Below are positions 21,147 through 40,099 of a DNA stretch of 64,000 nucleotides, piece after piece. Below the pieces are notes generated by a model. It had not been told where the DNA came from. It saw only the letters and a program-made list of their open reading frames with translations, and made no database searches. How positions within the stretch are numbered: position 1 is the stretch's first letter; each line of letters begins with the position of its first letter. Source of the DNA: Candidatus Saccharimonadota bacterium (GTDB lineage Bacteria > Patescibacteriota > Saccharimonadia > Saccharimonadales > UBA10212); contig JACPKF010000001.1 in NCBI GenBank assembly GCA_016187125.1, forward strand, positions 38,931 through 102,930, read 5' to 3'. The position numbers and the translations under genes were made by a program.

Positions 21147-22091
21147 TTAGAGTTCCAGCTCGGACATTTTCTCTTTAACTTCATCTAAAGCCTTGTTACC
21201 AAAACCTTTAAGATCACGCAGTTCGGCTTCACTCAGAGATAGCAAGTCTTTAATAGTTTGTATTTCATTATTAACTAGAGCGTTTGTGGTGCGGGCGCTT
21301 AAATTGAGATCCTCAATTGACGTCATGAGTTCGGCTGGTTCATCTGTCTCGGTTTGCGTAGAATCTACTTCGCTACCATTAAACAAGCTACCAGCTTCTA
21401 CCTTGGTCTGGCCGGCCAGAGCCGTGTATTGATTAACTAATATGGCTGAGGCTTCTTCAAAAGCGTCCCTAGGCGTAATTGAGCCGTCTGTGTCAACGGT
21501 CAGAAGCAATTTATCAAGATCAGTCATTTGGCCTACACGGGTGTTCTCGACTTTGTAGCGTACTCTAAGAACGGGCGTAAACAAGGCATCAAGCATGATC
21601 ATATCAGTAACTTTTTTGCTGAAGCCTTGTTCGTCTAGAGCCCTATAGCCTCTACCTGTCTCGACTAATATTTCCATCTCGAGCGAAGCCTTAGGGTCAT
21701 CAATCCTGCAAATAATCTGATCTGGGTTAACTACTTCCACGTCAGCGTTGAGTTGCAAGTCTTTAGCTTTGACTATACCCTTACCTTTTTTAGATAGTCG
21801 TAATTCTTGCGGCTCATCACTAAAAACTCGGAAGCGTATAGATTTAAGATTCAACATAATAGCTACAACATCTTCTTTAATACCTGAGATAGTTGTAAAT
21901 TCGTGGCTAATGCCTTGGACTCTAAAGCCAGTCACTGCGGCTCCGGCAATTGATGATAGCAGGACCCGTCTTAGACTATTACCAAGCGTCATGCCGTAAC
22001 CAGGATGCAGTGGTTCGATGGTGAATGTGGCGCTAGTCGGGTGATGGTCTATTACTGCGCCCAGGCTTGGTGTGTGAATAAGTTTACTCAT
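21147..22091 (-). CDS. rpoA: DNA-directed RNA polymerase subunit alpha
   Basis: 314 aa with N-terminal FTIEPLHPGYGMTLGNSLRRVLLSSI and a C-terminal alpha-CTD (LNLSARTTNALVNNEIQTIKDLL). Confidence 0.92.
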   Translation of the reverse strand: MSKLIHTPSLGAVIDHHPTSATFTIEPLHPGYGMTLGNSLRRVLLSSIAGAAVTGFRVQGISHEFTTISGIKEDVVAIMLNLKSIRFRVFSDEPQELRLSKKGKGIVKAKDLQLNADVEVVNPDQIICRIDDPKASLEMEILVETGRGYRALDEQGFSKKVTDMIMLDALFTPVLRVRYKVENTRVGQMTDLDKLLLTVDTDGSITPRDAFEEASAILVNQYTALAGQTKVEAGSLFNGSEVDSTQTETDEPAELMTSIEDLNLSARTTNALVNNEIQTIKDLLSLSEAELRDLKGFGNKALDEVKEKMSELEL

Positions 22092-22111
22092 AATGTTATC
22101 TACTTGCCTCC

Positions 22112-22732
22112 TTAACGCGAGTAGTACTCAATAATTAATTGTTCTTTAATATCAGATTCAGCATCATCTCTTGAAGGTAATCCATTAACGGATAGTTGTA
22201 CTTGCTTGCGGTCGACTTTGATCCAGGTCGGAGTGGATGGTGCCGGTGGGCTTAGCTCGTCAAGATGTTTAAAATATTCGTTCTTTTTGGCATGAGCATG
22301 TAAGGTAATCTTGTCGCCAACCTTAACTCGGATGGATGGAATATCTACTCGGCGGCCATTAAGCATGAAATGGCCATGTGTTACCAGCTGTCTGGCTGCT
22401 CGCCGACTTACGGCAAGGCCACTGCGGTAAATAACATTATCGAGTCGTCGTTCCAAAAATTCTAGCAGCATGGTCCCGGACTGACCTTTTCTACGGACCG
22501 CTTCCTCTAAAAGATTGGCGAATTGTTTTTCAAGTAAACCGTAAAGGCGTTTAACCTTTTGCTTTTCACGAAGCTGTAAACCGTATTGGCTAGATTTAGT
22601 GCGTCTGTAAGTCTGAGTTCCTTGCTGGCCTGGAGGTCCTACGCGCTTGACAAGAACTTTATGAGCTTTGGGGTGAAGTGCATAACTTTCACGACGAGAT
22701 TGCTTGACTATTGAGCTTAAATCTCTGGCCAT
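22112..22732 (-). CDS. rpsD: 30S ribosomal protein S4
   Basis: MARDLSSIVKQSRRESYALHPKAHK. S4 domain reads LDNVIYRSGLAVSRRAARQLVTHGHFMLNGRRVDIPS. Start re-called to 22732, with GGAGG upstream. Confidence 0.9.
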   Translation of the reverse strand: MARDLSSIVKQSRRESYALHPKAHKVLVKRVGPPGQQGTQTYRRTKSSQYGLQLREKQKVKRLYGLLEKQFANLLEEAVRRKGQSGTMLLEFLERRLDNVIYRSGLAVSRRAARQLVTHGHFMLNGRRVDIPSIRVKVGDKITLHAHAKKNEYFKHLDELSPPAPSTPTWIKVDRKQVQLSVNGLPSRDDAESDIKEQLIIEYYSR

Positions 22733-22892
22733 CAGGCAACCTCCGGTTGCAGCAATAAGCCCGCCTTTGCCATGGCTACGGCGGATAGACAATAAGCAAT
22801 AAGCCATAAGCCAGTCCGTTTAAGCGGACTGCTAAGTTGCAATCCTTTTTGCATTTTGCATTTTGCATTTTGCTGAAAAATGTTGAGCATTT
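22733..22892 (-). repeat. rpsK-rpsD spacer containing the 60-nt repeat copy (22748-22812), a GTCCGTTTAAGCGGAC hairpin and three GCATTTT repeats
   Basis: 22748-22812 is near-identical to 23875-23938. Confidence 0.75.
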
Positions 22893-23360
22893 TTAGTTCC
22901 TCTTCGCCTTCCGTGGCCTAACACCTCCATGTGGTGTGCCGGTAACATCTCTGATGTTATCCACGCTAATCTGTCTGGCAACCAAAGTCCTTATAGCCGC
23001 CTCGCGGCCCATGCCAATTCCATTGACAAACACATCTACTTTGCTGACGCCATAAGTTTTGGCAGTTTCTACAGCCTTTTCGGCGGCTATTTGGGCTGCG
23101 TAAGCTGTACCTTTTTTAGAACCACGGAAGCCGCAGCTACCAGCACTGGCAGCTGCGAGGGTATTTCCCTGGATATCCGTAACAGTAATTATAGTGTTAT
23201 TAAAAGTAGCCAAGACATGGACTTGTCCTTGGGTAACAGTCCGGCGATGCTTCTTTTTCTTAACAGTCTTTGGTCTTGTGTCTATAGACGTTTCTTCGGG
23301 TTGGTTACTTTTGCCAACTACTTCTTTTACTTCATCTACGGTAGCTATCTTATCTGCCAT
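22893..23360 (-). CDS. rpsK: 30S ribosomal protein S11 with about 30-aa N-terminal extension
   Basis: GQVHVLATFNNTIITVTDIQGNTLAAASAGSCGFRGSKKGTAYAAQ is the S11 core. Preceded by CGACTGGAAGGAG. Confidence 0.9.
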   Translation of the reverse strand: MADKIATVDEVKEVVGKSNQPEETSIDTRPKTVKKKKHRRTVTQGQVHVLATFNNTIITVTDIQGNTLAAASAGSCGFRGSKKGTAYAAQIAAEKAVETAKTYGVSKVDVFVNGIGMGREAAIRTLVARQISVDNIRDVTGTPHGGVRPRKAKRN

Positions 23361-23472
23361 AAGACACTCCTTCCAGTCGCTTTAGCTACTCGCTGAAAGC
23401 TATGAGCTGAGAGCCGAAATGCAGCGGCTAGGGGCACTAAGCTAGGGACTCTAAGCTGATGATTGTAGGCAA
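23361..23472 (-). repeat. rpsM-rpsK spacer, family B
   Basis: In mRNA sense it reads ATGATTGCCTACAATCATCAGCTTAGAGTCCCTAGCTTAG...TAGCTAAAGCGACTGGAAGGAG, homologous to 28406-28525 and 28922-29044. Confidence 0.7.
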
Positions 23473-23859
23473 TCATGTTTTGGCTGCTACCTTCTTAGCA
23501 GTACCGCCAACGGTAATTTTTTTACCTCGTTTTGTACGAGCATTAGTGCGGGTTCTTTGGCCCCTTGTAGGTAGATTGGCTTGATGCCGCAGTCCCCTAT
23601 AAGCCTTAATGTCTTTCAAGCGCTTAATATTACCGGTTACGACCCTCTGAAGTTCACCCTCCACAGTATAGTTATTGGTTATGATCTCCTGGAGTTTTGA
23701 CAGCTCAGAGTCAGTTAGATCTTTGACTCTAACTGTTTGCTCAACTTTAGCGCTTGACAGTATTCTACTGCTTAGCTGCGGCCCAATACCATATATATAA
23801 GTTAGCGCAATTTGCACTTGCTTGTTATCCGGGATATTTACACCAGCCAGTCTAGCCAC
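23473..23859 (-). CDS. rpsM: 30S ribosomal protein S13
   Basis: (M)ARLAGVNIPDNKQVQIALTYIYGIGPQLS. GTG start with GGAG 7 nt upstream. Confidence 0.92.
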   Translation of the reverse strand: MARLAGVNIPDNKQVQIALTYIYGIGPQLSSRILSSAKVEQTVRVKDLTDSELSKLQEIITNNYTVEGELQRVVTGNIKRLKDIKAYRGLRHQANLPTRGQRTRTNARTKRGKKITVGGTAKKVAAKT

Positions 23860-23985
23860 GTGCGAACTCCGTTCGCGGTAATAAGCCCGCCTTTGCCATG
23901 GCTACGGCGGATAGACAATAAGCCATAAGCCATAAGCCTTCTTGCTTTATGCTTCTTGCTCTACGCTTAAAAATGCTACGCATTT
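23860..23985 (-). repeat. rpmJ-rpsM spacer containing the second 60-nt repeat copy (23875-23938)
   Basis: TAATAAGCCCGCCTTTGCCATGGCTACGGCGGATAGACAATAAGCCATAAGCC. Confidence 0.75.
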
Positions 23986-24102
23986 TCAGCCTTGCCTCTG
24001 TTTATGCTTAGGTTTTTTCTTATTAATAATATATACTCGTCCCTTACGGCGGACGACTTTGTCATCCGGACTAATTTTTTTGACGCTAGCACGCACTTTC
24101 AT
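23986..24102 (-). CDS. rpmJ: 50S ribosomal protein L36 (Cys-less, zinc-independent type)
   Basis: Below the ORF-track size cut-off. My translation is [43 protein letters not shown] lies upstream. Confidence 0.85.
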
Positions 24103-24227
24103 CCCGTTAGACCTCCGCTCCGCGGCATCCCGTTAGAGGCAAGAATTGGGAAAATTCTGCCGGTTCGCTAATGCGAACCGGGCCTCTAACGGGATTAGGT
24201 CTAACGGGATGAACCCCGTTAGAAGCC
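24101..24227 (-). promoter_or_regulatory. nested inverted-repeat RNA structure overlapping the rpmJ SD/AUG (five copies of CCCGTTAGA/TCTAACGGG)
   Basis: Perfect pairings are 24101-24113 with 24198-24210, 24127-24140 with 24182-24195, and an alternative TCTAACGGG at 24200-24208 with CCCGTTAGA at 24215-24223. Inner hairpins span 24142-24158 and 24160-24181. Confidence 0.6.
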
Positions 24228-24371
24228 CAATTTGTTTGCAAATCGGCAAATATTCCGCTTCTAATCGGGGTCACGCTAATAGTTAGGTTGTTAGTCGTTG
24301 CACGCATTCTAATCCCCTTCTATGGATTTACTGCGGATCCGCTAAATTTATTAGCGAACACACTGCTTAAA

Positions 24372-24593
24372 TCAATTTTCGCGGTAAGTTATCCGACCCT
24401 TCGTCAGATCGTAAGGTGTCAATTCTACCTTAACGCGGTCTCCTGGCACGAGGCGAATATAGTGCTTACGCATCCTGCCGGCTATGTGAGCCATAATTAT
24501 ATGGCCGTTTTCGAGTTCAACTCGGAACTGGGTACCGGGTAGAGCCTCTACGACTGTACCAGCCAGTTCAATTACCTCTTTTTCACGGGCCAT
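24372..24593 (-). CDS. infA: translation initiation factor IF-1
   Basis: [71 protein letters not shown]. Confidence 0.93.
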
Positions 24594-24650
24594 AAATACA
24601 ACCCGAACATTTTAACAAAAACTTCATCTGTTGTAAAGAGGCTTTCAGAA

Positions 24651-26177
24651 TTACTTTTTAGGCCGTTTTAATTTGGGTAAAAAACGCAGGCGCCTGGCGC
24701 CAGTCGCCGCCAACCCTCCCTCGGCCGGTTCGTAGAAGTAATCGGGCTGTTCATATTGATCATAAGTAATCATTAAGGCTCTTGACTCGACCTGGCGCAG
24801 TGTTTCTAGTGACACCGAGACTAAAATTAAGATGCTAGTGCCACCGATCCCGAGGGCAATGTTTGGATCAATCCATCTTGAAGCAATAATTGGCATTACG
24901 GCCAAAAAACCGAGGGCTGTAGCGCCAAACAGTGTTAGTCTGTTCACAGTTTTGCGAAGATAATGCTCGGTTTGCTTGCCAGATCTGATGCCGGATAAAA
25001 AGCCGCCTTGCTTTTGCAAGTTTTCGGCAATTTCTTTGGAGTTAAAGGTTACACTAGTGTAAAAATAAGTAAATATAAATACTAAGAAAAAATAGGTCAA
25101 TGGATAAATCCATGGTTGCCAGCCCCCAACCGCAAAAGTTGCTGCAGTTGGGTTTTGGAACAATTGACTTAAGAGTACCCCAAATCTTTCCCAGCTTGTA
25201 TCAGCAGCAAGTGCTGTCCCTTGGCCTTGGGTTAGAAGTTGACCGGCAAAACCTGGAACAGCCAAAAAAGCCACAGCAAAGATAATTGGAATTACGCCGG
25301 CTGTAATAAGCTTAACCGGTAAAGTCGTAGTTACTCCGCCATAAGTTCTGTTGCCCTGCACTCTTTTGGCATAATTAACGGTTAGCCTGCGCGATGCCTC
25401 GTTGAGTTTTACGACTGCCCATATCACAAACAGCGTAGCTGCACTAATAATACTAACGAGGATCAGGCCGTGGCGGCTAAAATTATGATTTAGGATGGTT
25501 AGTTTATCACCGCTGTTCGTCGCTATCCAAGTGGTGCTACGAGCCAGCTGGGTGATAATGCTAGGCAAACTACTAACAATCCCGACCGTAATCAGAAGCG
25601 ATATGCCATTGCCAAGGGATCGCTCGGTGATTAATTCTCCAAGCCACATCAGTATCATAGAGCCACCGGTGAGAGCAGCGATCATCAGGGTCCATTGACC
25701 AATTGAAGTATTGGCAGTTATATCGCCCAGGCCGCCAAGACTGGAAGCCGTTTGACGAATCAAGTAGATCAAACCTACGGATTGAACGATAGCTAAAGGA
25801 AAAGTTAGCATGCGGGTAAATTGGTTGATTTTCTTACGTCCAAACTCGCCTTCCTTATTCATAGCTTCTAATTTCGGGATGGCTTTGGTAAGCAACTGCA
25901 TGATGATGCTGGCATTAATATAAGGCCCCAGTCCTACAAGCATGACTGAAAAATTACCGAGGGCTCCTCCTGATAGGACGTTCAAAAAGCCTAACAACTG
26001 ATTATTACTGGTCTGGGTAAAAAGATTTTCAAGGACTTGCTTTAAGGTACTCGGATCACTTAAAGGCACCGGAACATGAGCCAAAATTCGGAACACCAGC
26101 AGCATTCCAAGAACAGCCAAAATACGCTTTCGCATCTCACTGTGGCCAAGAGATTTAAGAATTATTCCCCAATTCAC
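24651..26177 (-). CDS. secY: preprotein translocase subunit SecY (long form, 508 aa)
   Basis: Multi-pass membrane protein in the canonical position after rplO. GTG start with GGAGGG upstream. Contains YINASIIMQLL and GGTSILILVSVSLETLRQVE. Confidence 0.9.
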   Translation of the reverse strand: MNWGIILKSLGHSEMRKRILAVLGMLLVFRILAHVPVPLSDPSTLKQVLENLFTQTSNNQLLGFLNVLSGGALGNFSVMLVGLGPYINASIIMQLLTKAIPKLEAMNKEGEFGRKKINQFTRMLTFPLAIVQSVGLIYLIRQTASSLGGLGDITANTSIGQWTLMIAALTGGSMILMWLGELITERSLGNGISLLITVGIVSSLPSIITQLARSTTWIATNSGDKLTILNHNFSRHGLILVSIISAATLFVIWAVVKLNEASRRLTVNYAKRVQGNRTYGGVTTTLPVKLITAGVIPIIFAVAFLAVPGFAGQLLTQGQGTALAADTSWERFGVLLSQLFQNPTAATFAVGGWQPWIYPLTYFFLVFIFTYFYTSVTFNSKEIAENLQKQGGFLSGIRSGKQTEHYLRKTVNRLTLFGATALGFLAVMPIIASRWIDPNIALGIGGTSILILVSVSLETLRQVESRALMITYDQYEQPDYFYEPAEGGLAATGARRLRFLPKLKRPKK

Positions 26178-26249
26178 AGAACGCCCTCCGGTCGTTCTAG
26201 CATAAAGTAAAAAGTAAAATGTAAAAAGCGATCAACCCGAAGTACTTCC
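26178..26249 (-). repeat. rplO-secY spacer, family D-like (AAAGTAAAAAGTAAAATGTAAAAAG / CTTATTGCTTATTACTTTTTGC)
   Basis: The two arms are partly complementary. Confidence 0.55.
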
Positions 26250-26729
26250 TTATTGCTTATTACTTTTTGCATCTTGCTTCTTTTGGCGTCCGACTTGATC
26301 TACACTTGTAAAACTGCCACCGGCTTTGGTTACCAGTTCTACTGCTGATTTGCTAGCTAATTGTAGTTTCACATCTTTTTTTGAGCTTAGCTCACCATTA
26401 ACAATAAGTTTGACTTTTACAAAAGGCGTTGAAGTTAAGCCGGCTTCAAAAATAGCCTGATTATCAATTACAGCTTTCTTGATAGTTCCCAACTGCCCGG
26501 TATAAACAACTTCAACAGCGGGGGCATGGCTCTTGAAGCCTCTAAGTTTTGGCAACCGCATATATAGTGGCATTTGTCCGCCTTCAAAGCCCGGTCTGAC
26601 GCCGCCGCTTTTGCGTGCACCCTGGCCTTTGGTTCCCCGTCCGGCCGTCTTGCCGCGACCAGCGGCTATACCTCGGCCAGGGCGCCGAGGTATAGCCTGT
26701 CTTGGTACTTCCAGATTGTTATATTTCAT
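26250..26729 (-). CDS. rplO: 50S ribosomal protein L15
   Basis: GRGIAAGRGKTAGRGTKGQGARKSGGVRPGFEGGQMPLYMRLPKLRGF. Confidence 0.9.
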   Translation of the reverse strand: MKYNNLEVPRQAIPRRPGRGIAAGRGKTAGRGTKGQGARKSGGVRPGFEGGQMPLYMRLPKLRGFKSHAPAVEVVYTGQLGTIKKAVIDNQAIFEAGLTSTPFVKVKLIVNGELSSKKDVKLQLASKSAVELVTKAGGSFTSVDQVGRQKKQDAKSNKQ

Positions 26730-26821
26730 AGACTACCTCTCTTCGAGTCTGAGCCTGAGGCTCATCCCTCAGAGTCGAACGACGAGTAGTAGTCTCTAGT
26801 CCAAAGTCTCCAGTTGACAAG

Positions 26822-27409
26822 CTATTCATTATTTTTTCCCTTCGGGGTGTGGTCCTTAATTTTTCTCTTGACTGATAACTGATGACTGTCGACTGTCGAC
26901 TGCGAAGCACTTTGCTTGACCCTAGTTACCCACTTGTCAGCTGAAACCATAGACTGTAGAGCTGCTAGCGTGGCGTAAGCAGTATTGATGCGATTAGATG
27001 AGCCGAATGATTTTGACAGGGCATTTTCGAAGCCACTGACTTCAAGTATTGTCCTGACAATACCGCCAGCGATAAGACCTGTTCCCGGAGCTGCAGGTAA
27101 GATTAAGATGTGCGCCCCACCGACTTTTGCCTCCACTTCGTGAGCTAAGGTGCCTTTATAAATAGGTAGCTTTGTAAGATGTTTTTTAGCTACACCAGTA
27201 GCTTTTGTAACGGCGGCTGAAACGTCCGCGCCCTTACTAACTCCTACGCCTACTTGCCCTTTATGGTCGCCAACCAGAACAAGTGCCTGGAACCTGAACC
27301 GACGACCACCTTTAACCACTCTGGCAACGCGATTAACATAAATAACTCGCTCATCAAAGGTTCTTTCTTCGGTCAATCCTATAGCTTTGTTGGAGGTATA
27401 AGCTGACAT
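26822..27409 (-). CDS. rpsE: 30S ribosomal protein S5 with about 30-aa C-terminal extension
   Basis: [42 protein letters not shown]. Confidence 0.9.
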
Positions 27410-27509
27410 CAGACATTCCTCCCAGTTGCGAGAACTAGTGAATAGTAACTAGGAATTAGTTTTTTCACCGCTTTCTGATGGCCATTTACTAATTGCTTAA
27501 GGAATAGCA
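27410..27509 (-). repeat. rplR-rpsE spacer, family C
   Basis: GAGAACTAGTGAATAGTAACTAGGAATTAG...CCATTTACTAATTGCTTAAGG. Confidence 0.6.
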
Positions 27510-27863
27510 TTAGAACTCTAATCCTTCTGTCCGCGCCGACTCAGCCAAGGCTTTAACACGGCCGTGGTATTTTTTACCGCCTCGGTCAAAGACAACTTTG
27601 TTGATCTTGGCTTTGGCCGCTTTTTTGGCTATTTGAATACCTATCCACGTAGCTTTTTCAGTCATAGTTCCTTGAATTTTTGATCCGGCGGTAGTGGCGT
27701 AAGCAAGAGTAAATCCCTGGTTATCATCTATTATTTGGGCAGTAATATGTAAATTACTTACTCGGACCGCCAGACGAGGTCTATCGGCTGTACCCGACAC
27801 TTTAGCTTTAACTCTATAAGCTCGACGCGCCTGATTGTGGCGTTTACCGGTTAACCTTTCCAT
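27510..27863 (-). CDS. rplR: 50S ribosomal protein L18
   Basis: RPRLAVRVSNLHITAQIIDDNQGFTLAYATT...VVFDRGGKKYHGRVKALAESARTEGLEF. Confidence 0.9.
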   Translation of the reverse strand: MERLTGKRHNQARRAYRVKAKVSGTADRPRLAVRVSNLHITAQIIDDNQGFTLAYATTAGSKIQGTMTEKATWIGIQIAKKAAKAKINKVVFDRGGKKYHGRVKALAESARTEGLEF

Positions 27864-28405
27864 TAGGTTGTCTCCTTGCCGCTTTTACCGCTTTTACGGA
27901 TAATTCTCTCATCCACGTACTTAATGCCCTTGCCTTTATAAGGCTCTGGTTTTTTTAAGGCTCTGATCTCAGCCGCTACCTGCCCAACTTGCTGTTTAGA
28001 GGCGCCACTGACACTGATAATATTTTGTTCCACAGATACCTGAATACCTTCAGGCACTTTGTAGGTAACATCGTGGGAAAAACCAAGGTTAAATTTAAGA
28101 TCGCTGCCAGTCTGCTGGACTCTGTAGCCAACCCCATTAATTTCCAACTTCTTGGTAAAGCCCTTGCTGACTCCCTCTATCATATTACTGATGAGAGAAC
28201 GCATAAGACCGTGCTTAGACTTTACGGATTTTTCTTCACTATTTCGCTCAACTACAACCCGGCCGTCTTCAATTGACACCGTGATTTCCGGCATTTGAAA
28301 TTGCTGGAGGTTACCCTTAAGCCCTTGAACAGATATGAAGTCTTTATCAACAGTTAGATTGACTCCACTAGGTATGTTGATTGGTAATTTTCCAATACGA
28401 CTCAT
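27863..28405 (-). CDS. rplF: 50S ribosomal protein L6
   Basis: MSRIGKLPINIPSGVNLTVDKDFISVQGLKGNL. Preceded by CGACTGCAAGGAG. Confidence 0.9.
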   Translation of the reverse strand: MSRIGKLPINIPSGVNLTVDKDFISVQGLKGNLQQFQMPEITVSIEDGRVVVERNSEEKSVKSKHGLMRSLISNMIEGVSKGFTKKLEINGVGYRVQQTGSDLKFNLGFSHDVTYKVPEGIQVSVEQNIISVSGASKQQVGQVAAEIRALKKPEPYKGKGIKYVDERIIRKSGKSGKETT

Positions 28406-28525
28406 AAAAAGCTCCTTGCAGTCGCTTTAGCTAACAGCTGATAGTCCTTGGCTGATAGCCTGAATGAAGCGGCTAAGAGCTGAGAGCTAAGAGCTAATGG
28501 CTCATGATGAATGTAATGATTCATT
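28406..28525 (-). repeat. rpsH-rplF spacer, family B
   Basis: In mRNA sense it reads ATGAATCATTACATTCATCATGAGCCATTAGCTCTTAGCTCTCAGCTCTTAGCCGCTTCATTCAGGC...GTTAGCTAAAGCGACTGCAAGGAG. Confidence 0.75.
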
Positions 28526-28921
28526 TTAGTAGACCTCGCAAATTAGTTCACCGCCAAGGTTTTTGGACTTGGCTTCCTGTCCGGTCATTAAACCCTTAGA
28601 GGTGGATATTATTATAATTCCACGCCCCCGCTTTACATAAGGTATTTTCTTGCTGTTTATGTAGGTCCGTCTCCCAGGACGACTTAAACGGCCTATTTCG
28701 GCGATAGATGAGGGGTAGTTAGAATCATTGATCGATATCACCAAATATTTACGGTTTTTTTCGGTAGTAGTCGTTATTTGCTGCAAAAAGCCGTTACTCT
28801 TTAAAATCTCCGCTACTCTCTCTTTTAAAATTGAGTGTGGCAAACGAATCTCGTCTTTGTTAACCATCATGGCGTTACGGATACGGCTCAACATATCGGC
28901 TATCGGATCAGTAGAAACCAT
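28526..28921 (-). CDS. rpsH: 30S ribosomal protein S8
   Basis: TDPIADMLSRIRNAMMVNKDEIRLPHSILKERVAEILKSNGF. Preceded by CGACTGAAAGGAG. Confidence 0.9.
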   Translation of the reverse strand: MVSTDPIADMLSRIRNAMMVNKDEIRLPHSILKERVAEILKSNGFLQQITTTTEKNRKYLVISINDSNYPSSIAEIGRLSRPGRRTYINSKKIPYVKRGRGIIIISTSKGLMTGQEAKSKNLGGELICEVY

Positions 28922-29044
28922 CAGACGCTCCTTTCAGTCGCTCCAGCTGTGAGCTGATGGCTGTTAGTAAAGAGCCGGATTGAAGCGGCTAAGGACTCTA
29001 AGCTAAGGACTCTAAGCTGATGATGAATGTAATGAATCATATTC
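28922..29044 (-). repeat. rpsN-rpsH spacer, family B
   Basis: In mRNA sense it reads ATGATTCATTACATTCATCATCAGCTTAGAGTCCTTAGCTTAGAGTCCTTAGCCGCTTCAATCCGGC...GGAGCGACTGAAAGGAG. Confidence 0.75.
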
Positions 29045-29314
29045 TTACCAACTCGCCTTAGTTACACCGGGGATTTCACCCTTGGAGGCATGTTCGCGAA
29101 AAGAAATGCGCGATAGGCCGAATTGCCTCATATAACCGCGAGGACGACCGGTTTCCGCACAACGGTTCTTGCGCCGACTCGGGCTGCTGTTTCGCGGTAG
29201 AAGAGCCAGACCTTCGCCGTCGCCGGCAGCCTTAAGCTCGGCCCGTTTAACAGCGTATTTATCAATCATTTTATGACGTTTAAGATCACGAGCAATCATC
29301 GATTTTTTAGCCAT
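29045..29314 (-). CDS. rpsN: 30S ribosomal protein S14 (89-aa long form)
   Basis: [29 protein letters not shown]...[34 protein letters not shown]. Confidence 0.88.
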
Positions 29315-29499
29315 CTAAACGCCTCCTTTCGTCGGTTCAGTTAACAGTTTCCTATTACCGATTACCTGTGAGTTATCTATTACCGGTGGCCAACTGTTAA
29401 ATGACAGATGTGAATTTAATAGTAAACCCGAAAAGGCCCCGTTGGGACCCTCGGGTCCCTTTACGGGATGGTAAATGGTAAATGGTAAATTGAGCAATT

Positions 29500-30093
29500 T
29501 CATTGCGACTTCTCCTTTTCGAATGGCATTCCCATTTTTTCAAGTAGGGCTTTGGAATGCTCTGGACTGATTGATTTAATTACAAACACAACTTGCAGGC
29601 CGTGAGGCGTGGCAGTGTCTTCAAAACTTAGTTCTGGAAAAACAGATTGATCCGTCAGTCCAAGACTATAGTTACCTTGCTTGTCAAATGACTTAAGACT
29701 GACACCGTGAAAATCACGCAACCTGGCCAAAACTAAATTTATCAAACGGTCTGCAAACTCATACATTGGCTGCCCGTTCAAGGTTACTTTAAGTCCAATC
29801 TTACTGCCTTCGCGCAGTTTAAAACTAGCAATCGATTGCTTAGCAGTAGTAGCTATCGGTTTTTGACCGGTGATTTTACTCAGAGTGTTGGCAGCCACAT
29901 CCAGTAACTTTTTCTCATCTTTAGCTTTACCAAGTCCGACATTGACAATAATTTTCTCTAGACGGGGCGCTTGATGTATGTTCTTAAGCTTCAACTCGGC
30001 TGTAAGCTGAGGCGCGTAATCGTTAATATACAAAGTCTTAAGTCGAGCCTGATAGCCAGAAGATTTAGTCGACGCGGATTTAATACCAGTCAT
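29500..30093 (-). CDS. rplE: 50S ribosomal protein L5
   Basis: RLKTLYINDYAPQLTAELKLKNIHQAPRLEKIIVNVGLG. Start re-called to the ATG at 30093, with GGAGG upstream. Confidence 0.9.
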   Translation of the reverse strand: MTGIKSASTKSSGYQARLKTLYINDYAPQLTAELKLKNIHQAPRLEKIIVNVGLGKAKDEKKLLDVAANTLSKITGQKPIATTAKQSIASFKLREGSKIGLKVTLNGQPMYEFADRLINLVLARLRDFHGVSLKSFDKQGNYSLGLTDQSVFPELSFEDTATPHGLQVVFVIKSISPEHSKALLEKMGMPFEKEKSQ

Positions 30094-30217
30094 TAGGGCA
30101 GCCTCCGACTTATAAAACAAACTACATGGTTTTTCCTATCGGATTTTTTGGGGTAAGTCCAAACTCCGCAGACAGCGGGATCGGTCCATGGTTTTTTCCT
30201 TAATTCCAAATATATCA
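30094..30217 (-). repeat. rplX-rplE spacer, family F (homologous to 34845-34937)
   Basis: GGTTTTTCCTATCGGATTTTTTGGGGTAAGTCCAAACTCCGCAGACAGCGGGATCGGTCCATGGTTTTTTCCTTAATTCCAA. Confidence 0.7.
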
Positions 30218-30604
30218 TTATTTAAGTTCCTTACCACTAGACTTCAAGATACGTCGTTTCGAGCCGTCGTTAAAAGATTTAAAACCGATTCTTGAAGGTT
30301 TTTTTGAACCAGAATCAAGTAGACCAACTTTGCTTACCCAGATCGGCTTGGTGATTTCAATAATTCCGCCTTGAGGTGATAGGCGAGCCGGTTTTTTGTG
30401 GCGTTTGACGATGTTAATACCTTCCACGGTAACTTTATTCAGAGCCGGATGAATTTGAAGTATTTTTCCGGTATGGGCTTTATACTTTCCGCTTCTAATC
30501 ATTACTTCGTCGCCTTTTTTCAACCGAATCTTATACACCTTTTTGGTTATCGCTTTTTGCCTGTCCACCGTAGCCTTGGCGAAGGCGGACTTTTTGCTTG
30601 TCAT
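30218..30604 (-). CDS. rplX: 50S ribosomal protein L24 (N- and C-terminally extended as called)
   Basis: [30 protein letters not shown] core. The ATG overlaps the rplN stop (ATGA). The first 25 codons contain the 32-nt repeat element, so the true start is uncertain (alternative GTG near 30529). Confidence 0.85.
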
Positions 30605-30972
30605 AGTACCTCCGGAGCCAGGGAAATTATACGCCCGTAGCCTTTTTCACGTAACTCTCTTGGAACCGGTCCAAAAACACGTGTTCCTTGAGGCGTCTTG
30701 TTATCTTCGGCTAAGACGACTGCCGCGTTATCATCAAACCTGATAGACGAGCCGTCTTTACGAACTATCGGACTGCGAGTTCTGACTATAACTGCTTTGA
30801 TGATAGATTTACGTTTGACTACGCCAGCCGGATTAGCCGTTTTGACGCTGGCTACAATAATATCGCCAACCCGAGCATAACGACGGCGGCTGCCACCTAG
30901 GACACGGATACACAGCAGTTGACGGGCGCCGCTGTTGTCTGTCGCTAGTAACCTGGTCTCCTGCTGAATCAT
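30601..30972 (-). CDS. rplN: 50S ribosomal protein L14
   Basis: [44 protein letters not shown]. Confidence 0.93.
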
Positions 30973-31162
30973 AGGGAAGCTCCTTGTCCTCGCGGCCTTC
31001 GACTGCCGCTCAGGCCGCCCTGAACATGTTGTCCTTCGACTATCCTCTCCTCGAGTCTGAGCGACCTCGGAGTCGAAGACAGGACGACCCTGAGCATCTG
31101 TCGAAAGGGTCGAATGGGCGCAGAATGGAGAATGGAGACTGGAGAATGGAAGGCTATCAACT

Positions 31163-31540
31163 TCATTTCTTTTTGTCCTTATCTTTGCTCTGTGTAATTT
31201 TTGCAGTTTCGAGTTTCTGATTACTTCGTAGTTCTTTTATCGCACCTTCAGGTGCTTCTTGTGGAACGTCGGCAATTGCATCCTGTTCTTCGAAACCGCC
31301 ACGAGCAGACTCCAAAATTCTGTCCAAAGTAAATCGCTTGCGGGCCGAAATCGGACGACTTTCTTTGATAATCACTAAGTCGCCAATTTTGGCCAGGTTT
31401 TTCTCGTCATGGGCCATGAATTTAGTATTAATAGTGTACTGTTTCTTATACAAAGGGTGTGTTTTACGGGTAGCTACTGTAATAACTATAGTTTTATCAG
31501 GTTTATCACTAGAAACTCTGCCAGTTAATAGCCTACTCAT
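31163..31540 (-). CDS. rpsQ: 30S ribosomal protein S17 with about 40-aa C-terminal extension
   Basis: [35 protein letters not shown]. Start re-called to 31540. Confidence 0.88.
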
Positions 31541-31673
31541 TACTGATCTCTCTTGCCAATCATAGCAACTAGCAAATAGCAACTAGGAAATAATACTTTC
31601 CCTAATTGCTTATTACCTGCCCGCCATAGCCTCGGCGAAGGAGGGCTAATTGTTAATTGCCTGAACCGCAGCA
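31541..31673 (-). repeat. rpmC-rpsQ spacer, family C, plus a diverged copy of the 32-nt element (31616-31645)
   Basis: CATAGCAACTAGCAAATAGCAACTAGGAAATAA...CTAATTGCTTATTACCTGCCCGCCATAGCCTCGGCGAAGGAGGGC. Confidence 0.6.
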
Positions 31674-31874
31674 TCATAGGCCCTCCTTGGCTAACTGTTC
31701 GCCTAGAACCGTTAAGACACGGGCTAAATCTTTACGCTTAGTTCGGATAATTCTAACATTCTGAGTCTCGCCACTATATAATCGGCGACGCAGCTCAATG
31801 ATTTCCTCACGCAGCTGTGAACTTTGAGTTGCCAGTTGAGCAGTAGGTAATTTACGGATATCAGCAATTTTCAT
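31674..31874 (-). CDS. rpmC: 50S ribosomal protein L29
   Basis: 66 aa reading MKIADIRKLPTAQLATQSSQLREEIIELRRRL. Lies between rplP and rpsQ. Confidence 0.85.
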   Translation of the reverse strand: MKIADIRKLPTAQLATQSSQLREEIIELRRRLYSGETQNVRIIRTKRKDLARVLTVLGEQLAKEGL

Positions 31875-31885
31875 AATCAGCTTCT

Positions 31886-32302
31886 TTATTGCTCGTCCTT
31901 CATGATAAAACCGCTGTTAAGCGGCAATTTATGACCTGCCAAACGTATAGCTTCACGAGCTATATCTTCACTTACACCATCCATTTCAAATATAACTGTG
32001 CCTGGCTTAACTTTAGCGACAAAAAATTCTGGGTTACCTTTACCGCTGCCCATTTTGGTGCCGAGCGGCTTGAGGCTTACAGGAATATGCGGGAAAACTC
32101 GAATCCATATTTGGCCACCACGTTTGATATACCGAGTCATAGCTTGGCGAGCTGCTTCTATTTGGCGACTGCTGATACGTTGGCTGTCCTTGGAGATAAG
32201 ACCATAATGGCCATAAGCCAATTCGGTCATAGAAGTAGCACTGCCGCCGTGAATGCGGCCTTTACGAACTTTACGGTACTTTGTGCGTGATGGCATTAAC
32301 AT
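31886..32302 (-). CDS. rplP: 50S ribosomal protein L16
   Basis: MLMPSRTKYRKVRKGRIHGG... Confidence 0.93.
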   Translation of the reverse strand: MLMPSRTKYRKVRKGRIHGGSATSMTELAYGHYGLISKDSQRISSRQIEAARQAMTRYIKRGGQIWIRVFPHIPVSLKPLGTKMGSGKGNPEFFVAKVKPGTVIFEMDGVSEDIAREAIRLAGHKLPLNSGFIMKDEQ

Positions 32303-32393
32303 GCTCTACCTCCGGTAAAGCCATTAACCATTAGCCATTTACTATTTACCATTGTGAACGGTGAACGGTGAACGGTGAATGGGAATGACGGAG
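32303..32393 (-). repeat. rpsC-rplP spacer, family A (three CACCGTT repeats pairing with AATGGTA-type repeats)
   Basis: In mRNA sense, CATTCACCGTTCACCGTTCACCGTTCAC-A-ATGGTAAATAGTAAATGGCTAATGGTTAATGG. ACCGTT/AATGGT pairs include a G.U wobble only on the transcribed strand. Confidence 0.7.
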
Positions 32394-33026
32394 TCATGTC
32401 GTTTCGCCTCGGTAAATCCAAACTTTAACTCCTATAACTCCGGCTCCGGGGTATGTGGCTGTGGCACTGGCAAAATCAATATCGGCTCTTAAGGTATGGA
32501 GTGGCACACTACCCTGAACTTCTTTTTCGCGCCGACTCATTTCATTACCGCCCAAACGACCGGCAATCTCAATTCTAACTCCTTTGGCTCCAGCGCGAAT
32601 AGTCGAAGATGCTGCCATTTTTATGGCTCTACGGAAAGCAATCCGTTTTTGCAGCTGGTGAGCTATGTTTTCTGCTACCAATTTAGCTTGCAGCTCAGGC
32701 CGTTTGATTTCCTCGATATTGACACGGACAGGCACACCATAAAGCTTCTCAACTTCATTCTTAAGCTCACTAGCACCAGTACCACCACGACCGATAACAA
32801 CACCGGCCTTAGCGGTCTGAATAGTAACTGTCACCAGATTAGGTGAACGCTCAATATCAACTTTGCTGACAGCCGCACGGTTACCAAGCTTAGCGATAAT
32901 TAGGCGGCGAGCAGCTAAATCTTGCATCAAATAGGTAGCGTAATCTTTTTTGTTAACAAACCATTTACTGCGCCAATCCTTATTAACTTGAAGTCGCATA
33001 CTTATTGGGTTGACTTTTTGACCCAT
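32394..33026 (-). CDS. rpsC: 30S ribosomal protein S3
   Basis: MGQKVNPISMRLQVNKDWRSKWF. Preceded by GCGACTGGAAGGAGCGACTG-ATG. Confidence 0.93.
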   Translation of the reverse strand: MGQKVNPISMRLQVNKDWRSKWFVNKKDYATYLMQDLAARRLIIAKLGNRAAVSKVDIERSPNLVTVTIQTAKAGVVIGRGGTGASELKNEVEKLYGVPVRVNIEEIKRPELQAKLVAENIAHQLQKRIAFRRAIKMAASSTIRAGAKGVRIEIAGRLGGNEMSRREKEVQGSVPLHTLRADIDFASATATYPGAGVIGVKVWIYRGETT

Positions 33027-33135
33027 CAGTCGCTCCTTCCAGTCGCTTGAGGAACTAGAAAATAGTAAATAGAAACTAGCCGACCGAATCCTACAGCTGT
33101 TTTTACTAATTTCTGATTACTAATTGCTAATTTCA
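33027..33135 (-). repeat. rplV-rpsC spacer, family C
   Basis: GAGGAACTAGAAAATAGTAAATAGAAACTAG...TACTAATTTCTGATTACTAATTGCTAATTTC. Confidence 0.65.
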
Positions 33136-33516
33136 CTACTCTGACTCCTTTTTGGTCACGAGCTCTCTTTTTTTACTGACTCTTTTCTCGCCATCGACGA
33201 TGACACGGATGTGGCTAGTTTTGCGGGCAAACCGCAGTGCGCGTCCACGGGCTGCGGATCTATACCTTTTGAGCCGTGATCCTGGAGTGACAGTAATTTC
33301 AGTGATGTTTAAAGAATCAGGCTTAAAATTGTGGTTATGCTCAGCGTTAGCTCGTGCGCTAATTACGGCCTGCTTGACTGCTTCCGCGGCTCGTCTGGGT
33401 GTATGATCAAGAATCACAATAGCATCAGCGACACTACGTCCACGCACCAAAGCTGCCACTACGCTAACTTTACGCGGGCTCATTCTAACACCTTTATAAA
33501 TAGCCTGGACTGTCAT
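33136..33516 (-). CDS. rplV: 50S ribosomal protein L22
   Basis: [37 protein letters not shown]. The ATG overlaps the rpsS stop. Confidence 0.9.
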
Positions 33517-33836
33517 TGCCGTTCTTCTGCCTCGGGCTTAGTAGTTGTATTATCTGCTCCCGCCTCTTGACTTTTTGCTAGTTTGCCACCATGAACTCGA
33601 AATTTACGGGTCGGCGAGAATTCACCAAGTTTGTGGCCAACCATATTTTCGGTAATAAACACCGGCACATGCACTTTGCCGTTGTGTACGGCAATGGTGC
33701 GCCCTACAAACTCTGGCGCAACAGTACAAGCTCTAGCCCACGTTTTAACTACGCTGCGATCATCAGCGCCAAGCTTGGCTATTTTCCTAGCCAACTTGGG
33801 ATCAACGTAAGGCCCCTTTTTTAACGAACGTGACAT
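33513..33836 (-). CDS. rpsS: 30S ribosomal protein S19 (short C-terminal tail)
   Basis: [19 protein letters not shown]...[29 protein letters not shown]. Start re-called to 33836, with GGGAGGAG upstream. Confidence 0.9.
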
Positions 33837-33943
33837 CGTTAACACTCCTCCCGTTCAGGTATAGGGTATGCCGTATAGGGTATAAAGTATGCAGCTTCAT
33901 TTTTATACCTAATACTTAATACCGAATACGAAATACTCACTAC
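33837..33943 (-). repeat. rplB-rpsS spacer with a TATAGGGTA / TACCTAATAC-type dyad
   Basis: GGTATAGGGTATGCCGTATAGGGTATAAAGTATG...TATACCTAATACTTAATACCGAATACGAAATAC. Confidence 0.55.
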
Positions 33944-34780
33944 TTATTTCCTCTTTCCTAAGTGGCGGCTTCTGATAATAAACTTGTTAGTTGCCTTACG
34001 CCGCCTGGTTTTATAACCCAGGGTTTTTTGGCCCCACGGAGTCGTTGGCGGACGGGCCATGCGGTGACGGCCACCATCGCCACCGCCGTGTGGGTGATCA
34101 GCCGCCGCCATAACGACACCTCGAACGGTTGGTCTGATACCCATACGACGTTTACGGCCGGCGCTGCCGATTTTAATATTCTGGTGTTGCTCATTGCCCA
34201 CCGGTCCGATTGAAGCCATGGAATTGATACCGACCAGTCTAATTTCTCCGCTTGGCAATCGGACTTGGGCAGAGATTTCATCTTTAGCAACTAATTGGGC
34301 GCTGGAACCGGCGGTCCGAGCCAGTTGCCCGCCGCGACCAGATTGAAGTTCAACCGCGTGGATAACGGTACCAACTGGAATGTTTTTTAGAGGCAAACGA
34401 TTACCAATTTTTATGGAGGCTTCTTCTTCAACACTGACTTTTCTGCCCGGTTTCATACCCTTAGCTGCCAGTACATAGTGACGGTGTCCATCTTGATCTT
34501 TAATAAGAGCTATACGAGCGCTGCGGTTAGGATCGTATTCTATTTGTTCGACAGTAGCCGTCGTCCCCGGCGCCAGAGCGAAGTTAAGCAAGCGGTAAAA
34601 ACGACGTACGCCACCGCCTCGGTGGCGGGTTGTGATTCGGCCTTGATTGTTGCGTCCCTCGGAGCCTTTTTTAATCATTGTTAAGCCGCGCAGCGGCTTT
34701 TTGGTGGTAACACTGTCAAAGTCCTGAGTGCTCATGCCTCTTCTGGCTGGAGATGTCGGCTTGTAATCACGAACAGCCAT
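33944..34780 (-). CDS. rplB: 50S ribosomal protein L2
   Basis: 278 aa containing GRNNQGRITTRHRGGG and MAAADHPHGGGDGG. Confidence 0.94.
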   Translation of the reverse strand: MAVRDYKPTSPARRGMSTQDFDSVTTKKPLRGLTMIKKGSEGRNNQGRITTRHRGGGVRRFYRLLNFALAPGTTATVEQIEYDPNRSARIALIKDQDGHRHYVLAAKGMKPGRKVSVEEEASIKIGNRLPLKNIPVGTVIHAVELQSGRGGQLARTAGSSAQLVAKDEISAQVRLPSGEIRLVGINSMASIGPVGNEQHQNIKIGSAGRKRRMGIRPTVRGVVMAAADHPHGGGDGGRHRMARPPTTPWGQKTLGYKTRRRKATNKFIIRSRHLGKRK

Positions 34781-34937
34781 TACTGCGCCTCCGGCTTATA
34801 GGACAAACCTACAGTACTATCACCCCGCAAAACTTGTTTTGCGGGGACCCCGGTTTTTCCTATCGGACCTTTTGGAATAAATCCAAATCCGCCTGGGCGG
34901 ACCGGTCCTTTCTTTTCCCTTAACTTCAAGAGGGACA
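34781..34937 (-). repeat. rplW-rplB spacer, family F (homologous to 30094-30217), plus a CCCCGCAAAAC..GTTTTGCGGGG hairpin
   Basis: GGTTTTTCCTATCGGACCTTTTGGAATAAATCCAAATCCGCCTGGGCGGACCGGTCCTTTCTTTTCCCTTAACTTCAA. Confidence 0.7.
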
Positions 34938-35264
34938 TTACTTCTTCTCCTTCTTGGAGGAATTATCAGAATCGGCAAAAAATGGCAGTTTATCTCCGTC
35001 TTTCAACGTGACATAGGCTTTATGGCTGGCTGGCCGGGCAGTTTTAACAAACTTGCCTCGCCTTTTATAGGATCTAAGCGGCTTGGGCGCGACTTGGTTC
35101 AAACGCACGGCTTGAACGCCTACTTTATATTGGGAAGTAACTGCCCTGGCAACTTCGAACTTATTGATACCAGCCGGCACGTCAAAAACATAGGTGTTTA
35201 GCGTTTCGCTGGCAGCATAGGCCTTTTCACTCAGCCTTGGCTTTAGCGCTATTAGCTTAAACAT
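34938..35264 (-). CDS. rplW: 50S ribosomal protein L23
   Basis: LKPRLSEKAYAASETLNTYVFDVPAGINKFEVARAV. Lies between rplD and rplB. Confidence 0.85.
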   Translation of the reverse strand: MFKLIALKPRLSEKAYAASETLNTYVFDVPAGINKFEVARAVTSQYKVGVQAVRLNQVAPKPLRSYKRRGKFVKTARPASHKAYVTLKDGDKLPFFADSDNSSKKEKK

Positions 35265-35405
35265 CTACAGCTCCTCCAGAGCCATTTAACGTTAGCCATT
35301 TACCGTTTTCCGTACATTTACCATTAGTCATTAACCATTTGTTAACGGTAAACGGATAACGCATGGTGAAGGCTGAACGGTGAAGGGTGAACGAGAAATG
35401 ACCTG
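35265..35405 (-). repeat. rplD-rplW spacer, family A
   Basis: About 90% identical to 36062-36160 over roughly 95 nt (CCATTTA.C.TTAGCCATTTACCGTTTT.CGTACATTTACCATTAGTCATTAACCATTTGTTAACGGT.AACG). Confidence 0.8.
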
Positions 35406-36044
35406 TCATTTCTTTTCCCCTAGCCATTCATGAATAATATCTAAAGCTTTTTTACTGATTACGATTTGATCGGCATTCAAAATATCTAAAACACTTAAAT
35501 AGTTAGTTTGTATGGCTTTGACCAGTGGTAAGTTGCGAGTTGCTCGTTCAACTAGATCATCTTTGAGACTTACAACTAGTAGCACGGAGCCTTGTGAGCC
35601 AATTTTGTTGAGTAGGTTGAGCGTTGGTTTTACTTTGCCGTCCTGGCATTCAAATGTTTCAATAATTTTGATTTTATCGGCTTGAGCCGCCAGACTAAGA
35701 GCCTGACGAAGAGCCAAACGTTTAGCAGAAGTTGTAATCTTGCGAGTGTAATTCTCATTTCCGGTTGGGCCAAAAGCCACACCACCGCCAGTCCAAATAG
35801 GATTTCTGGATGATCCAAAGCGGGCTCTGCCCGTACCTTTCTGACGCCAGGGTTTTTGGCCACCGCCACGAACCTGGCTTCGTTTTTTTGTCTGAGCTAA
35901 ATTTGGCCGGCTGTTGGCCAAATGAGCTAGGTAGACGTCCTTTAACAGTTGATGATTCTTTACATCAACATCGAAAATTGCCTTATCTAGCTTAGCAGGA
36001 GACGAGGCTTTGTTACCGGATTTCGTGAATGTAGTAACAGCCAT
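35406..36044 (-). CDS. rplD: 50S ribosomal protein L4
   Basis: MAVTTFTKSG...RGGGQKPWRQKGTGRARFGSSRNPIWTGGGVAFGP. Start re-called to 36044, with GAAGGAG upstream. Confidence 0.9.
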   Translation of the reverse strand: MAVTTFTKSGNKASSPAKLDKAIFDVDVKNHQLLKDVYLAHLANSRPNLAQTKKRSQVRGGGQKPWRQKGTGRARFGSSRNPIWTGGGVAFGPTGNENYTRKITTSAKRLALRQALSLAAQADKIKIIETFECQDGKVKPTLNLLNKIGSQGSVLLVVSLKDDLVERATRNLPLVKAIQTNYLSVLDILNADQIVISKKALDIIHEWLGEKK

Positions 36045-36186
36045 CACATTGCTCCTTCGGATCCATTTACCATTAGCCATTTACCGTTTTTCGTACATTT
36101 ACCATTAGTCATTAACCATTTGTTAACGGTGAACGAGTAACTCACGGTGAACTGTGAAGGGTAAAAGGTAAAAGATAACGATGTCA
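36045..36186 (-). repeat. rplC-rplD spacer, family A
   Basis: See 35265-35405. In mRNA sense, the arms TTCACCGTTAAC and GTTAATGAC... flank AAATG. Confidence 0.8.
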
Positions 36187-37030: not shown

Positions 37031-37041
37031 ACATCCTAAAC

Positions 37042-38682: not shown

Positions 38683-38686
38683 TGTC

Positions 38687-40092: not shown

Positions 40093-40099
40093 GAAGTTA

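Follow-up and report, generated by a model that had tools for sequence, protein, structure and literature searches.

In the candidate phyla radiation (CPR), genomes are small and densely packed, and it is therefore unexpected that, in the stretch of Candidatus Saccharimonadota DNA considered here (64 kb of contig JACPKF010000001.1, as a whole called the window), about 25 of the 31 gene junctions in the block of ribosomal protein and rpo genes are occupied by a repeat element of 60-260 nt. What are these elements, and how might operons of essential genes tolerate them? A first-pass annotation had described three minus-strand spacers as homologous and termed them Family B: rpsN-rpsH (28922-29044), rpsH-rplF (28406-28525) and rpsM-rpsK (23361-23472). 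Family B is one subfamily of the element class that fills nearly every gene junction in the block. With a probability that we put at about 0.6, it is an intercistronic repeat element subfamily of one Candidatus Saccharibacteria lineage, equipped with a relay open reading frame (ORF) that would preserve translational coupling between the flanking genes.

Family B and its element class

Alignment of the three spacers with MAFFT bears out their homology: they align end to end with a mean column identity of 78%, and a 3-nt gap is the sole indel. The head, centre and tail motifs that had been quoted for them all lie where they were placed, and for each of them the chance expectation from shuffles of the window is nil. 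The head, ATGATTCATTACATTCATCAT, is present without mismatch in the rpsN-rpsH copy (B1) and with 1 mismatch in the rpsH-rplF copy (B2; 28504-28524), against an expectation of 0 matches in shuffles, and the rpsM-rpsK copy (B3) bears the shortened variant ATGATTGCCTACAATCAT (23459-23476). The centre, GCCGCT.CA.T..GGCT, is found at 28973-28989, 28457-28473 and 23412-23428; the tail, TAGCTAAAGCGACTGNAAGGAG, is found in all three spacers and at a fourth, partial site (33033-33054), where chance predicts 0. A profile hidden Markov model (HMM) of six copies, namely these three and three from other genomes described below, recovers exactly three full-length copies from the 64-kb window (E 1e-28 to 1e-32) and one extra 3' half, at 33027-33086 in the rplV-rpsC spacer. 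The copies and their parts are as follows.

28921..29040, minus strand: copy B1, rpsN-rpsH junction, with the 39-codon bridging ORF MIHYIHHQLRVLSLESLAASIRLFTNSHQLTAGATERSV (then stop)
29020..29040, minus strand: B1 head ATGATTCATTACATTCATCAT, which includes the ORF start (0 mismatches)
about 28990-29018, minus strand: B1 5' arm, the 14-nt unit CTTAGAGTCCTTAG repeated 2.2 times
28973..28989, minus strand: B1 centre, the GC-rich stem-loop GCCGCTTCAATCCGGCT, tip of the hairpin
about 28943-28972, minus strand: B1 3' arm, xxxCAGC heptads
28928..28942, minus strand: B1 tail AGCGACTGAAAGGAG, with the Shine-Dalgarno sequence AAGGAG at 28928-28933, 6 nt before the rpsH ATG
28526..28921, minus strand: rpsH (S8, 131 aa), between B1 and B2
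28402..28524, minus strand: copy B2, rpsH-rplF junction, with the 40-codon bridging ORF MNHYIHHEPLALSSQLLAASFRLSAKDYQLLAKATARSFL (then stop)
28504-28524, 28457-28473 and 28412-28426, minus strand: head, centre and tail of B2
23345..23476, minus strand: copy B3, rpsM-rpsK junction, with a 43-codon bridging ORF
23459-23476, 23412-23428 and 23367-23381, minus strand: head, centre and tail of B3
33027..33135, minus strand: rplV-rpsC spacer, of another body family, with the Family B 3' half and tail at 33027-33086
19434..52342, minus strand: ribosomal protein, rpoA and rpoBC block, with 27 spacers of 57-269 nt (3510 nt summed) containing 7- or 14-nt repeats

The surrounding genes on the minus strand form an S10-spc-alpha ribosomal protein cluster, with rpsL-rpsG and then rpoB-rpoC upstream. 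The S8 protein encoded between B1 and B2 is 100% identical to an NCBI protein of a Candidatus Saccharibacteria bacterium, the next nearest S8 being 74% identical. Five contigs from other sequencing runs, assembled independently, match the region with 100% identity over 1.6-6.2 kb including both B1 and B2, so its sequence is not an assembly artefact. Tandem Repeats Finder applied to the spacers returns predominantly periods of 7 and 14. Within the window each occupied junction holds a single element, and the whole unit never forms a tandem array. The Family B tail GCGACYGRARGGAG recurs in elements with other body families.

Related genomes were compared through contigs whose S8 is 63-74% identical to that of the window. 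In two of these relatives (L009 and L013), nearly all ribosomal protein genes are separated by 0-4 nt, and the rpsN-rpsH-rplF junctions measure 1-4 nt; in a third (L007), rpsN-rpsH is 4 nt and rpsH-rplF 1 nt. The compact state of these relatives indicates that it is ancestral. Elements of 97-138 nt occur at a few junctions in L006, L007, L015 and L016, and the rpsN-rpsH-rplF junctions that are empty in L007, L009 and L013 are filled in L006, L015 and L016 as they are in the window. Moreover, four genomes show four different combinations of head and body at rpsH-rplF:

window: Family B
L006: MLRINQS head, CAATCAG heptads
L015: MRSIFK head
L016: MTKPFQ head, AATTCAA heptads

In compact L013, the rplV-rpsC junction (4066-4398) holds a 110-codon non-repetitive ORF without a Pfam match that overlaps both neighbours through TAATG, and is thus a bridging gene of quite different character.

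Further copies of Family B, for which the first-pass annotation had asked, were found in L007, L010 and L012. In L007 the copy occupies the orthologous rpsM-rpsK site. Public collections were scanned with a degenerate head-gap-tail pattern to which every known copy conforms; among GTDB genomes this pattern returned one further locus, between pilB and pilT in MGCU01000027.1 (L010; Saccharibacteria RIFCSPHIGHO2_12_FULL_47_16b, a metagenome-assembled genome from Rifle groundwater); among JGI metagenomes it returned two loci, the L010 contig again and Ga0209515_10074321 (L012), where the element follows rpsN; and among viral contigs it returned 0. Like those of the window, all three copies are flanked by genes of the same strand and face in the sense direction. 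Since the L010 locus belongs to a type IV pilus operon (pilM to pilC), the class extends beyond translation genes. The gene order on the L012 contig, rpsQ-rplN-rplX-rplE-rpsN-[Family B]-pilT, with the element at 2216-2414, is peculiar in that rpsH would be expected past the element, and pilT follows the identical head in L010; assembly across the repeat has probably made the contig a chimera, in which case that genome has at least 2 copies of Family B.

These copies show how far the elements are modular. A 24-nt head, ATGATTCATTACATTCATCATCAG, which is the B1 head lengthened to end in CAG, is identical in B1, L010 and L012, at junctions that are not orthologous, and the bodies behind it differ completely: AGCT-type heptads in B1, GGGTCAA...nnnACCC in L010 and GGTTACR...nnAACC in L012. 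Together with the sharing of tails across body families, this agrees with the suggestion that the spacers are modular elements rather than products of drift. The variable middle that had been part of that suggestion holds good across genomes, but not within the window, where the middles of the three copies are homologous; modularity becomes visible only when other genomes are compared.

Open frames across the junctions

Beyond what had been noticed before, each element is an ORF that is coupled to a flanking gene at either end. B1, B2 and B3 are each spanned by a single open frame of 39-43 codons, and their tails provide the AAGGAG of the next gene; the remaining two frames contain 3-4 stops each. 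Relative to the first base of the upstream stop, these frames start from 1 nt before to 7 nt after; relative to the first base of the downstream start, they stop from 2 nt before to 13 nt after. In B1, the ATG lies 4 nt past the rpsN stop (7 nt from first base to first base) and the TGA shares 1 nt with the rpsH ATG (TGATG); in B2, the ATG lies 1 nt past the rpsH stop and the TGA overlaps the rplF ATG (ATGA); and in B3, the ATG overlaps the rpsM TGA (ATGA) and the stop lies 13 nt within rpsK.

The same geometry extends to the class, assessed over the 27 spacers of at least 57 nt from rpoB to rpsI. A stop-free sense frame spans 24 of them, versus 4 of 27 in antisense and a mean of 7.6 (standard deviation 1.9, maximum 14) in 1000 dinucleotide shuffles; two of the remaining three (rplB-rpsS and rplE-rpsN) are bridged as well, by ORFs whose stop falls 3-5 nt before the next start. 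Counted from the first base of the upstream stop, most starts lie between -1 and +7 nt, and, counted from the first base of the downstream start, the stops lie between -7 and +13 nt. The rplV-rpsC spacer, for example, is bridged by a 36-codon ORF whose GTG overlaps the upstream TAG and whose TGA overlaps the downstream ATG. In L006, L007, L010, L012, L015 and L016, 18 of 18 element spacers are bridged by ORFs with this geometry (antisense, 1/18; shuffles, 6.2±1.8). Heptad spacers at apparent operon boundaries, after tuf (39869-40099) and at 6304-6426, have stops in all three frames, which indicates that the open frame tracks operon-internal position and not the repeat sequence as such.

What has been conserved appears to be the frame rather than the peptide. 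Counted from ATG to tail-end stop, the six copies, which come from four genomes, are 117-123 nt long, with B3 extending to 132 nt; in their alignment every indel is a multiple of 3 and zero columns are out of frame. In each of the 15 pairs, differences fall evenly on the three codon positions (12/12/9 and 10/10/6, for example). The encoded peptides match 0 Pfam families at E<=1, and a profile of the six matches none of 5.8 billion proteins at E<=10. The even spread, the preserved frame and the lack of a protein match together indicate that selection preserved the frame and not the amino-acid sequence.

Two further members of the class stand at the upstream end of the block, and a putatively translated 264-nt spacer that splits rpoB from rpoC is unusual in itself:

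44512-44665: rpoC-rpsL junction, 154 nt, repeat element with a 52-codon bridging ORF
48506-48769: rpoB-rpoC junction, 264 nt, repeat element with a 93-codon bridging ORF

Hairpin, proposed relay and competing explanations

The AGCT-rich repeats noted earlier within the spacers prove to be the two arms of a hairpin. RNAalifold predicts for the six copies a common fold of four short AGNN/NNCU helices at 7-nt spacing with internal loops between them, in which AG and CU are invariant and NN co-varies (CU:AG, GG:CC, GU:AC); compensatory change, with both sides altered, affects 9 of 20 pairs. Paired cells amount to 88.3% (shuffled, 74.8±2.9; 0/500 as high) and the covariation score to 0.413 (shuffled, 0.176; 0/500), and sliding the registers leaves 28-53% of cells paired. 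The arms pair at about 4 of every 7 positions, a weak 'beaded' hairpin. In the window copies, a closing helix joins CAUCAG of the head to a downstream CUGAUG, UUUAUG or CUUAUG that includes the start codon. Further copies and a common fold having been found, and the likeness of heads and tails reaching far past their stop-codon and Shine-Dalgarno contexts, none of the outcomes that the first-pass annotation had named as telling against an element came about.

Each copy of the element lies in sense orientation, exactly from the stop of the upstream cistron to the next start, and comprises a head with an ATG at or adjoining the upstream stop, a 5' heptanucleotide array, a short GC-rich stem-loop, a pairing 3' array, and a tail that brings a consensus Shine-Dalgarno sequence (AAGGAG) together with a stop that overlaps or adjoins the start of the next gene, all in a single frame open from head to tail. 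In the explanation that we favour, a ribosome ending on the upstream gene would re-initiate at the head ATG, read through the element, melting the hairpin (with the closing helix CAUCAG:CUGAUG in several copies), and terminate atop the next start codon. By terminating there, it would allow translational coupling and continuous ribosome cover of the mRNA to survive an insertion of 110-125 nt; the peptide itself would have no function. The element would have been copied to many junctions, and insertion into essential, highly expressed operons may have been tolerated because the element carries its own relay.

Several observations weigh against this explanation. A search of the 64-kb window for terminal inverted repeats, consistent target-site duplication and a transposase (10 of its ORFs scanned) gave none of these, so the argument for mobility is one of distribution. 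In the alignment of the three copies the tail does not repeat the head in inverted form, and upstream and downstream junction types match exactly in about 3 of 22 cases, no more than the start/stop overlaps impose. The frames are seen in the sequence, and their translation is a presumption. One of the 27 spacers, infA-rpmJ, is bridged only in part, by an ORF that begins 67 nt past the stop. The head of the L007 copy differs from that of B1 at five positions, all third codon positions, and retains MIHYIH, a pattern that hints at some constraint on the first codons, although in two of them the same change recurs in a 9-nt repeat unit, so that these two are not independent. The predicted stability of the three window copies is no better than that of shuffles (sense z -0.67, -1.39 and +0.64), and the class mean is just -2.0 in sense and -2.2 in antisense; with such z-scores, support for a structured RNA comes from covariation, not stability. 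The covariation in turn derives from six sequences, the structure from the same six, and the heptads within one copy change in concert and are not independent. As stability is weak on both strands and G·U and A·C cells are nearly equal in number (7 and 6), pairing at the RNA level is indistinguishable from pairing at the DNA level, and the hairpin could act in DNA or be a by-product of the way the arrays arose. Nor is a start codon within a small palindrome a general feature (13/23 bridging versus 13/33 ordinary gene starts); with so unconvincing a difference, concealment of the start codon in a head palindrome was dropped as a general rule.

That there is no element at all, but ordinary diverged intergenic DNA whose likeness reflects stop and Shine-Dalgarno contexts and low complexity, with frames open by chance, is scarcely credible. 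Heptad repeats are indeed of low complexity, some heptamers being stop-free in every phase, and ATGA, TAATG and TGATG overlaps are common in compact operons; this reading is nevertheless refuted by the full-length alignment (78% identity; profile E 1e-28 to 1e-32), by a 24-nt head identical across three genomes, by open frames in 24/27 and 18/18 spacers, when shuffles give about 7 and 6 and the antisense strand 4 and 1, and by orthologous junctions that are empty in relatives. A real protein of about 40 aa, one of a paralogous microprotein family made with the ribosomal proteins, could explain the DNA similarity by selection on the peptide, and would agree with a frame that is open in all six copies between a well-positioned ATG and stop, with indels in multiples of 3, with the MIHYIH retained in L007, and with the RLSAK.Y.L.AKAT that B2 and L007 share despite several synonymous differences. 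Those synonymous-looking changes, however, are in part concerted changes of 9- and 14-nt DNA repeat units; copies with identical heads have unrelated middle peptides (QGQGSRVEGLD, VTGYRLRVTAA and LRVLSLESLAA) because the heptad body has been replaced; the same behaviour is seen in about 40 other bridging ORFs, whose low-complexity sequences are unrelated; and neither a Pfam family nor a similar protein among 5.8 billion corresponds to it. A functional microprotein was rejected as the principal explanation when the codon-position test gave no third-position excess, substitutions being even in 15/15 pairs, and we regard it as very improbable.

The element might instead be chiefly a structured cis-regulatory or processing RNA, or else an array of heptads that binds protein, and so govern how the downstream cistron is stabilised, processed or translated, with its open frame of secondary importance; this is a less remote alternative, though still an unlikely one. 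It would draw on the conservation of the beaded hairpin with compensatory changes across genomes, on the AG...CU invariant on both arms at 7-nt spacing, on a tail that sets the Shine-Dalgarno sequence in or beside a small hairpin, on the closing helix CAUCAG:CUGAUG of the window copies, and on the precedent of heptamer arrays in Beggiatoaceae, which lie directly upstream of starts, including those of ribosomal protein operons, and have been proposed as translational regulators (PMC4679880). The element, however, precedes genes as unrelated as rpsH, rplF, rpsK and pilT and is thus not a specific autoregulatory site; thermodynamically it is only weakly stable, and equally so on either strand; and it matches no Rfam family, a search of the window at gathering score having returned 5 tRNAs only, and a search of 23300-29100 at E<=1 nothing in the Family B copies. 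Promoter- and terminator-like consensus sites are likewise lacking in the copies, their counts being at shuffle level. A role purely at the RNA level leaves the frame-specific absence of stops and the strict multiple-of-3 lengths unexplained, and is compatible with the relay explanation as an added layer. A bolder extension of the coupled relay, which we hold doubtful, would see an undescribed, Saccharibacteria-lineage-specific class of self-propagating 'relay cassettes' that home to cistron junctions with their own start, Shine-Dalgarno sequence and stop, whose bodies evolve by concerted replacement of complementary heptads, and which a reduced genome has perhaps co-opted, in its translation, transcription and pilus operons, to impose strict ribosome hand-over or to fix the stoichiometry of subunits.

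Neighbouring repeats and known systems

Other repeats of the window differ in kind from Family B:

24103-24371, minus strand: infA-rpmJ spacer, 269 nt, of a different kind, with several copies of CTAACGGGAT/ATCCCGTTAG
30540-30598, 31596-31654 and 48712-48770, minus strand: another repeat family, the GTCCGCCTTCGCCAAGGCTACGGTGGAC hairpin

The infA-rpmJ spacer has very strong predicted structure, with a minimum free energy of -125 kcal/mol (z about -11 on both strands), is covered in part by a 66-codon ORF, and gave in its hairpin the sole other Rfam match, a spurious sub-threshold one to mir-9243. One GTCCGCCTTCGCCAAGGCTACGGTGGAC copy lies right behind the rplN stop and continues in frame into rplX, so that L24 gains a 24-residue N-terminal extension; L24 of L012 also bears a fused heptad-coded extension. 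Period-7 repeats (GACAGTC in sense) within the 3' end of rpsE (26884-26902) belong to a C-terminal extension that the L007 orthologue of S5 lacks, which suggests, as far as sequence comparison goes, that repeat arrays can be absorbed into flanking genes. Elsewhere in the class, the heads fall into a few recurring palindromic types containing ATG (ATGACnnnGTCAT, AAAATGCnnnGCATTTT), and the Shine-Dalgarno GGAG lies in the loop of a small perfect hairpin at 22733-22892, 23860-23985 and 21039-21146, at 7353-7455 in L010 and at 477-573 in L015; such tail hairpins include GCGAAC-GGA-GTTCGC, GCAACC-GGA-GGTTGC and GAAACC-GGA-GGTTTC. The 1.1-kb rplC-rpsJ gap (36805-37918) contains no long ORF on the operon strand and nothing but short fragmented ORFs on either strand, and is possibly a decayed gene in the S10 operon region. 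Small ORFs between tuf and rpsJ, in the window (38320-38559; 79 aa) and in L016 (2517-2946; 79 and 65 aa), are not repeat-like, have no Pfam match and are possibly conserved small genes.

The frame-specific absence of stops in about 40 independent elements amounts to a natural experiment, which argues that these operons work only if ribosomes continue translating across long intercistronic gaps. If the relay explanation is true, the elements are a set of natural termination-reinitiation cassettes for study or engineering. They would also call for caution in annotation, as 'hypothetical small ORFs' and long spacers in Saccharibacteria would be repeat elements, and such repeats would also cause chimeric metagenome assemblies, such as that of L012.

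Among known systems, the STRR heptamers of cyanobacteria are further heptanucleotide intergenic repeats. REP/BIME, ERIC, Correia, RUP/BOX and MITE-like repeats and the Rickettsia palindromic elements (RPEs) are small, non-autonomous, hairpin-forming and co-transcribed with their neighbours, and some (RPE, RUP and others) are tolerated because they are in frame with coding sequence. The elements described here are likewise small hairpin-forming repeats, with units fused in frame to L24 and S5 in the window; they differ in that no terminal inverted repeats, target-site duplication or transposase/RAYT were seen in the window, and those families, for their part, have neither a doubly coupled ORF between cistrons nor heptad arrays as a defining feature (PMC3184786 and general background).

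TAACTGA heptanucleotide repeats occur in Beggiatoaceae, Cyanobacteria and Bacteroidetes (PMC4679880). Like these and the STRR heptamers, the elements contain tandem 7-nt intergenic repeats, often directly before starts and in ribosomal protein operons too, and are patchily distributed among lineages. TAACTGA arrays, however, consist of simple direct repeats for which no secondary structure is predicted and which contain stop codons in the forward orientation, so they are not bridged by ORFs, whereas here the heptamer varies by element, two complementary arrays form a hairpin and the frame stays open. The elements are therefore not members of these families: the period of 7 or 14 agrees, but the heptamers differ, the arms pair and one frame is stop-free.

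Searches of the open-access literature turned up no description of such elements in Saccharibacteria or CPR bacteria. The closest counterpart in logic is the mycobacterial interspersed repetitive unit (MIRU), a mobile repeat of polycistronic intergenic regions that inserts at start codons, whose internal ORF becomes coupled to the genes, whose ends overlap adjacent genes, and for which both empty and filled sites are known (PMC12548453 and PMC3184786, which both cite Supply et al. 1997). If the relay explanation is true, the MIRU principle, by which a repeat pays for its insertion with a coupled ORF, extends to a distant phylum and a different architecture. Both are short intercistronic operon repeats that are co-oriented with the genes and lie in polycistronic mRNA (transcribed in the case of MIRUs, to judge from sequence here); both have a small ORF with ends overlapping the flanking stop and start, so that insertion affects expression little, or would do so here; and both have empty and filled sites among relatives, MIRUs also carrying internal GC-rich inverted repeats. 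They differ in host (Actinobacteria versus CPR/Saccharibacteria), so distant that sequence homology would not be expected; in unit, MIRUs being 40-100 bp and often in tandem arrays (variable number tandem repeats), whereas here there is one element of 100-260 nt per junction, with internal 7-nt repeats and a two-armed beaded hairpin; in junctions, filled MIRU sites having tetranucleotide direct repeats, whereas none here is consistent beyond start/stop overlaps; and in density, which is extreme here at about 25 of 31 ribosomal protein and rpo junctions. With the co-oriented sense position between cistrons, the ORF coupled at both ends and the empty and filled sites that characterize MIRUs functionally, the elements appear by analogy to be MIRU-like in logic without belonging to the MIRU family proper, and to be new in sequence, architecture and host.

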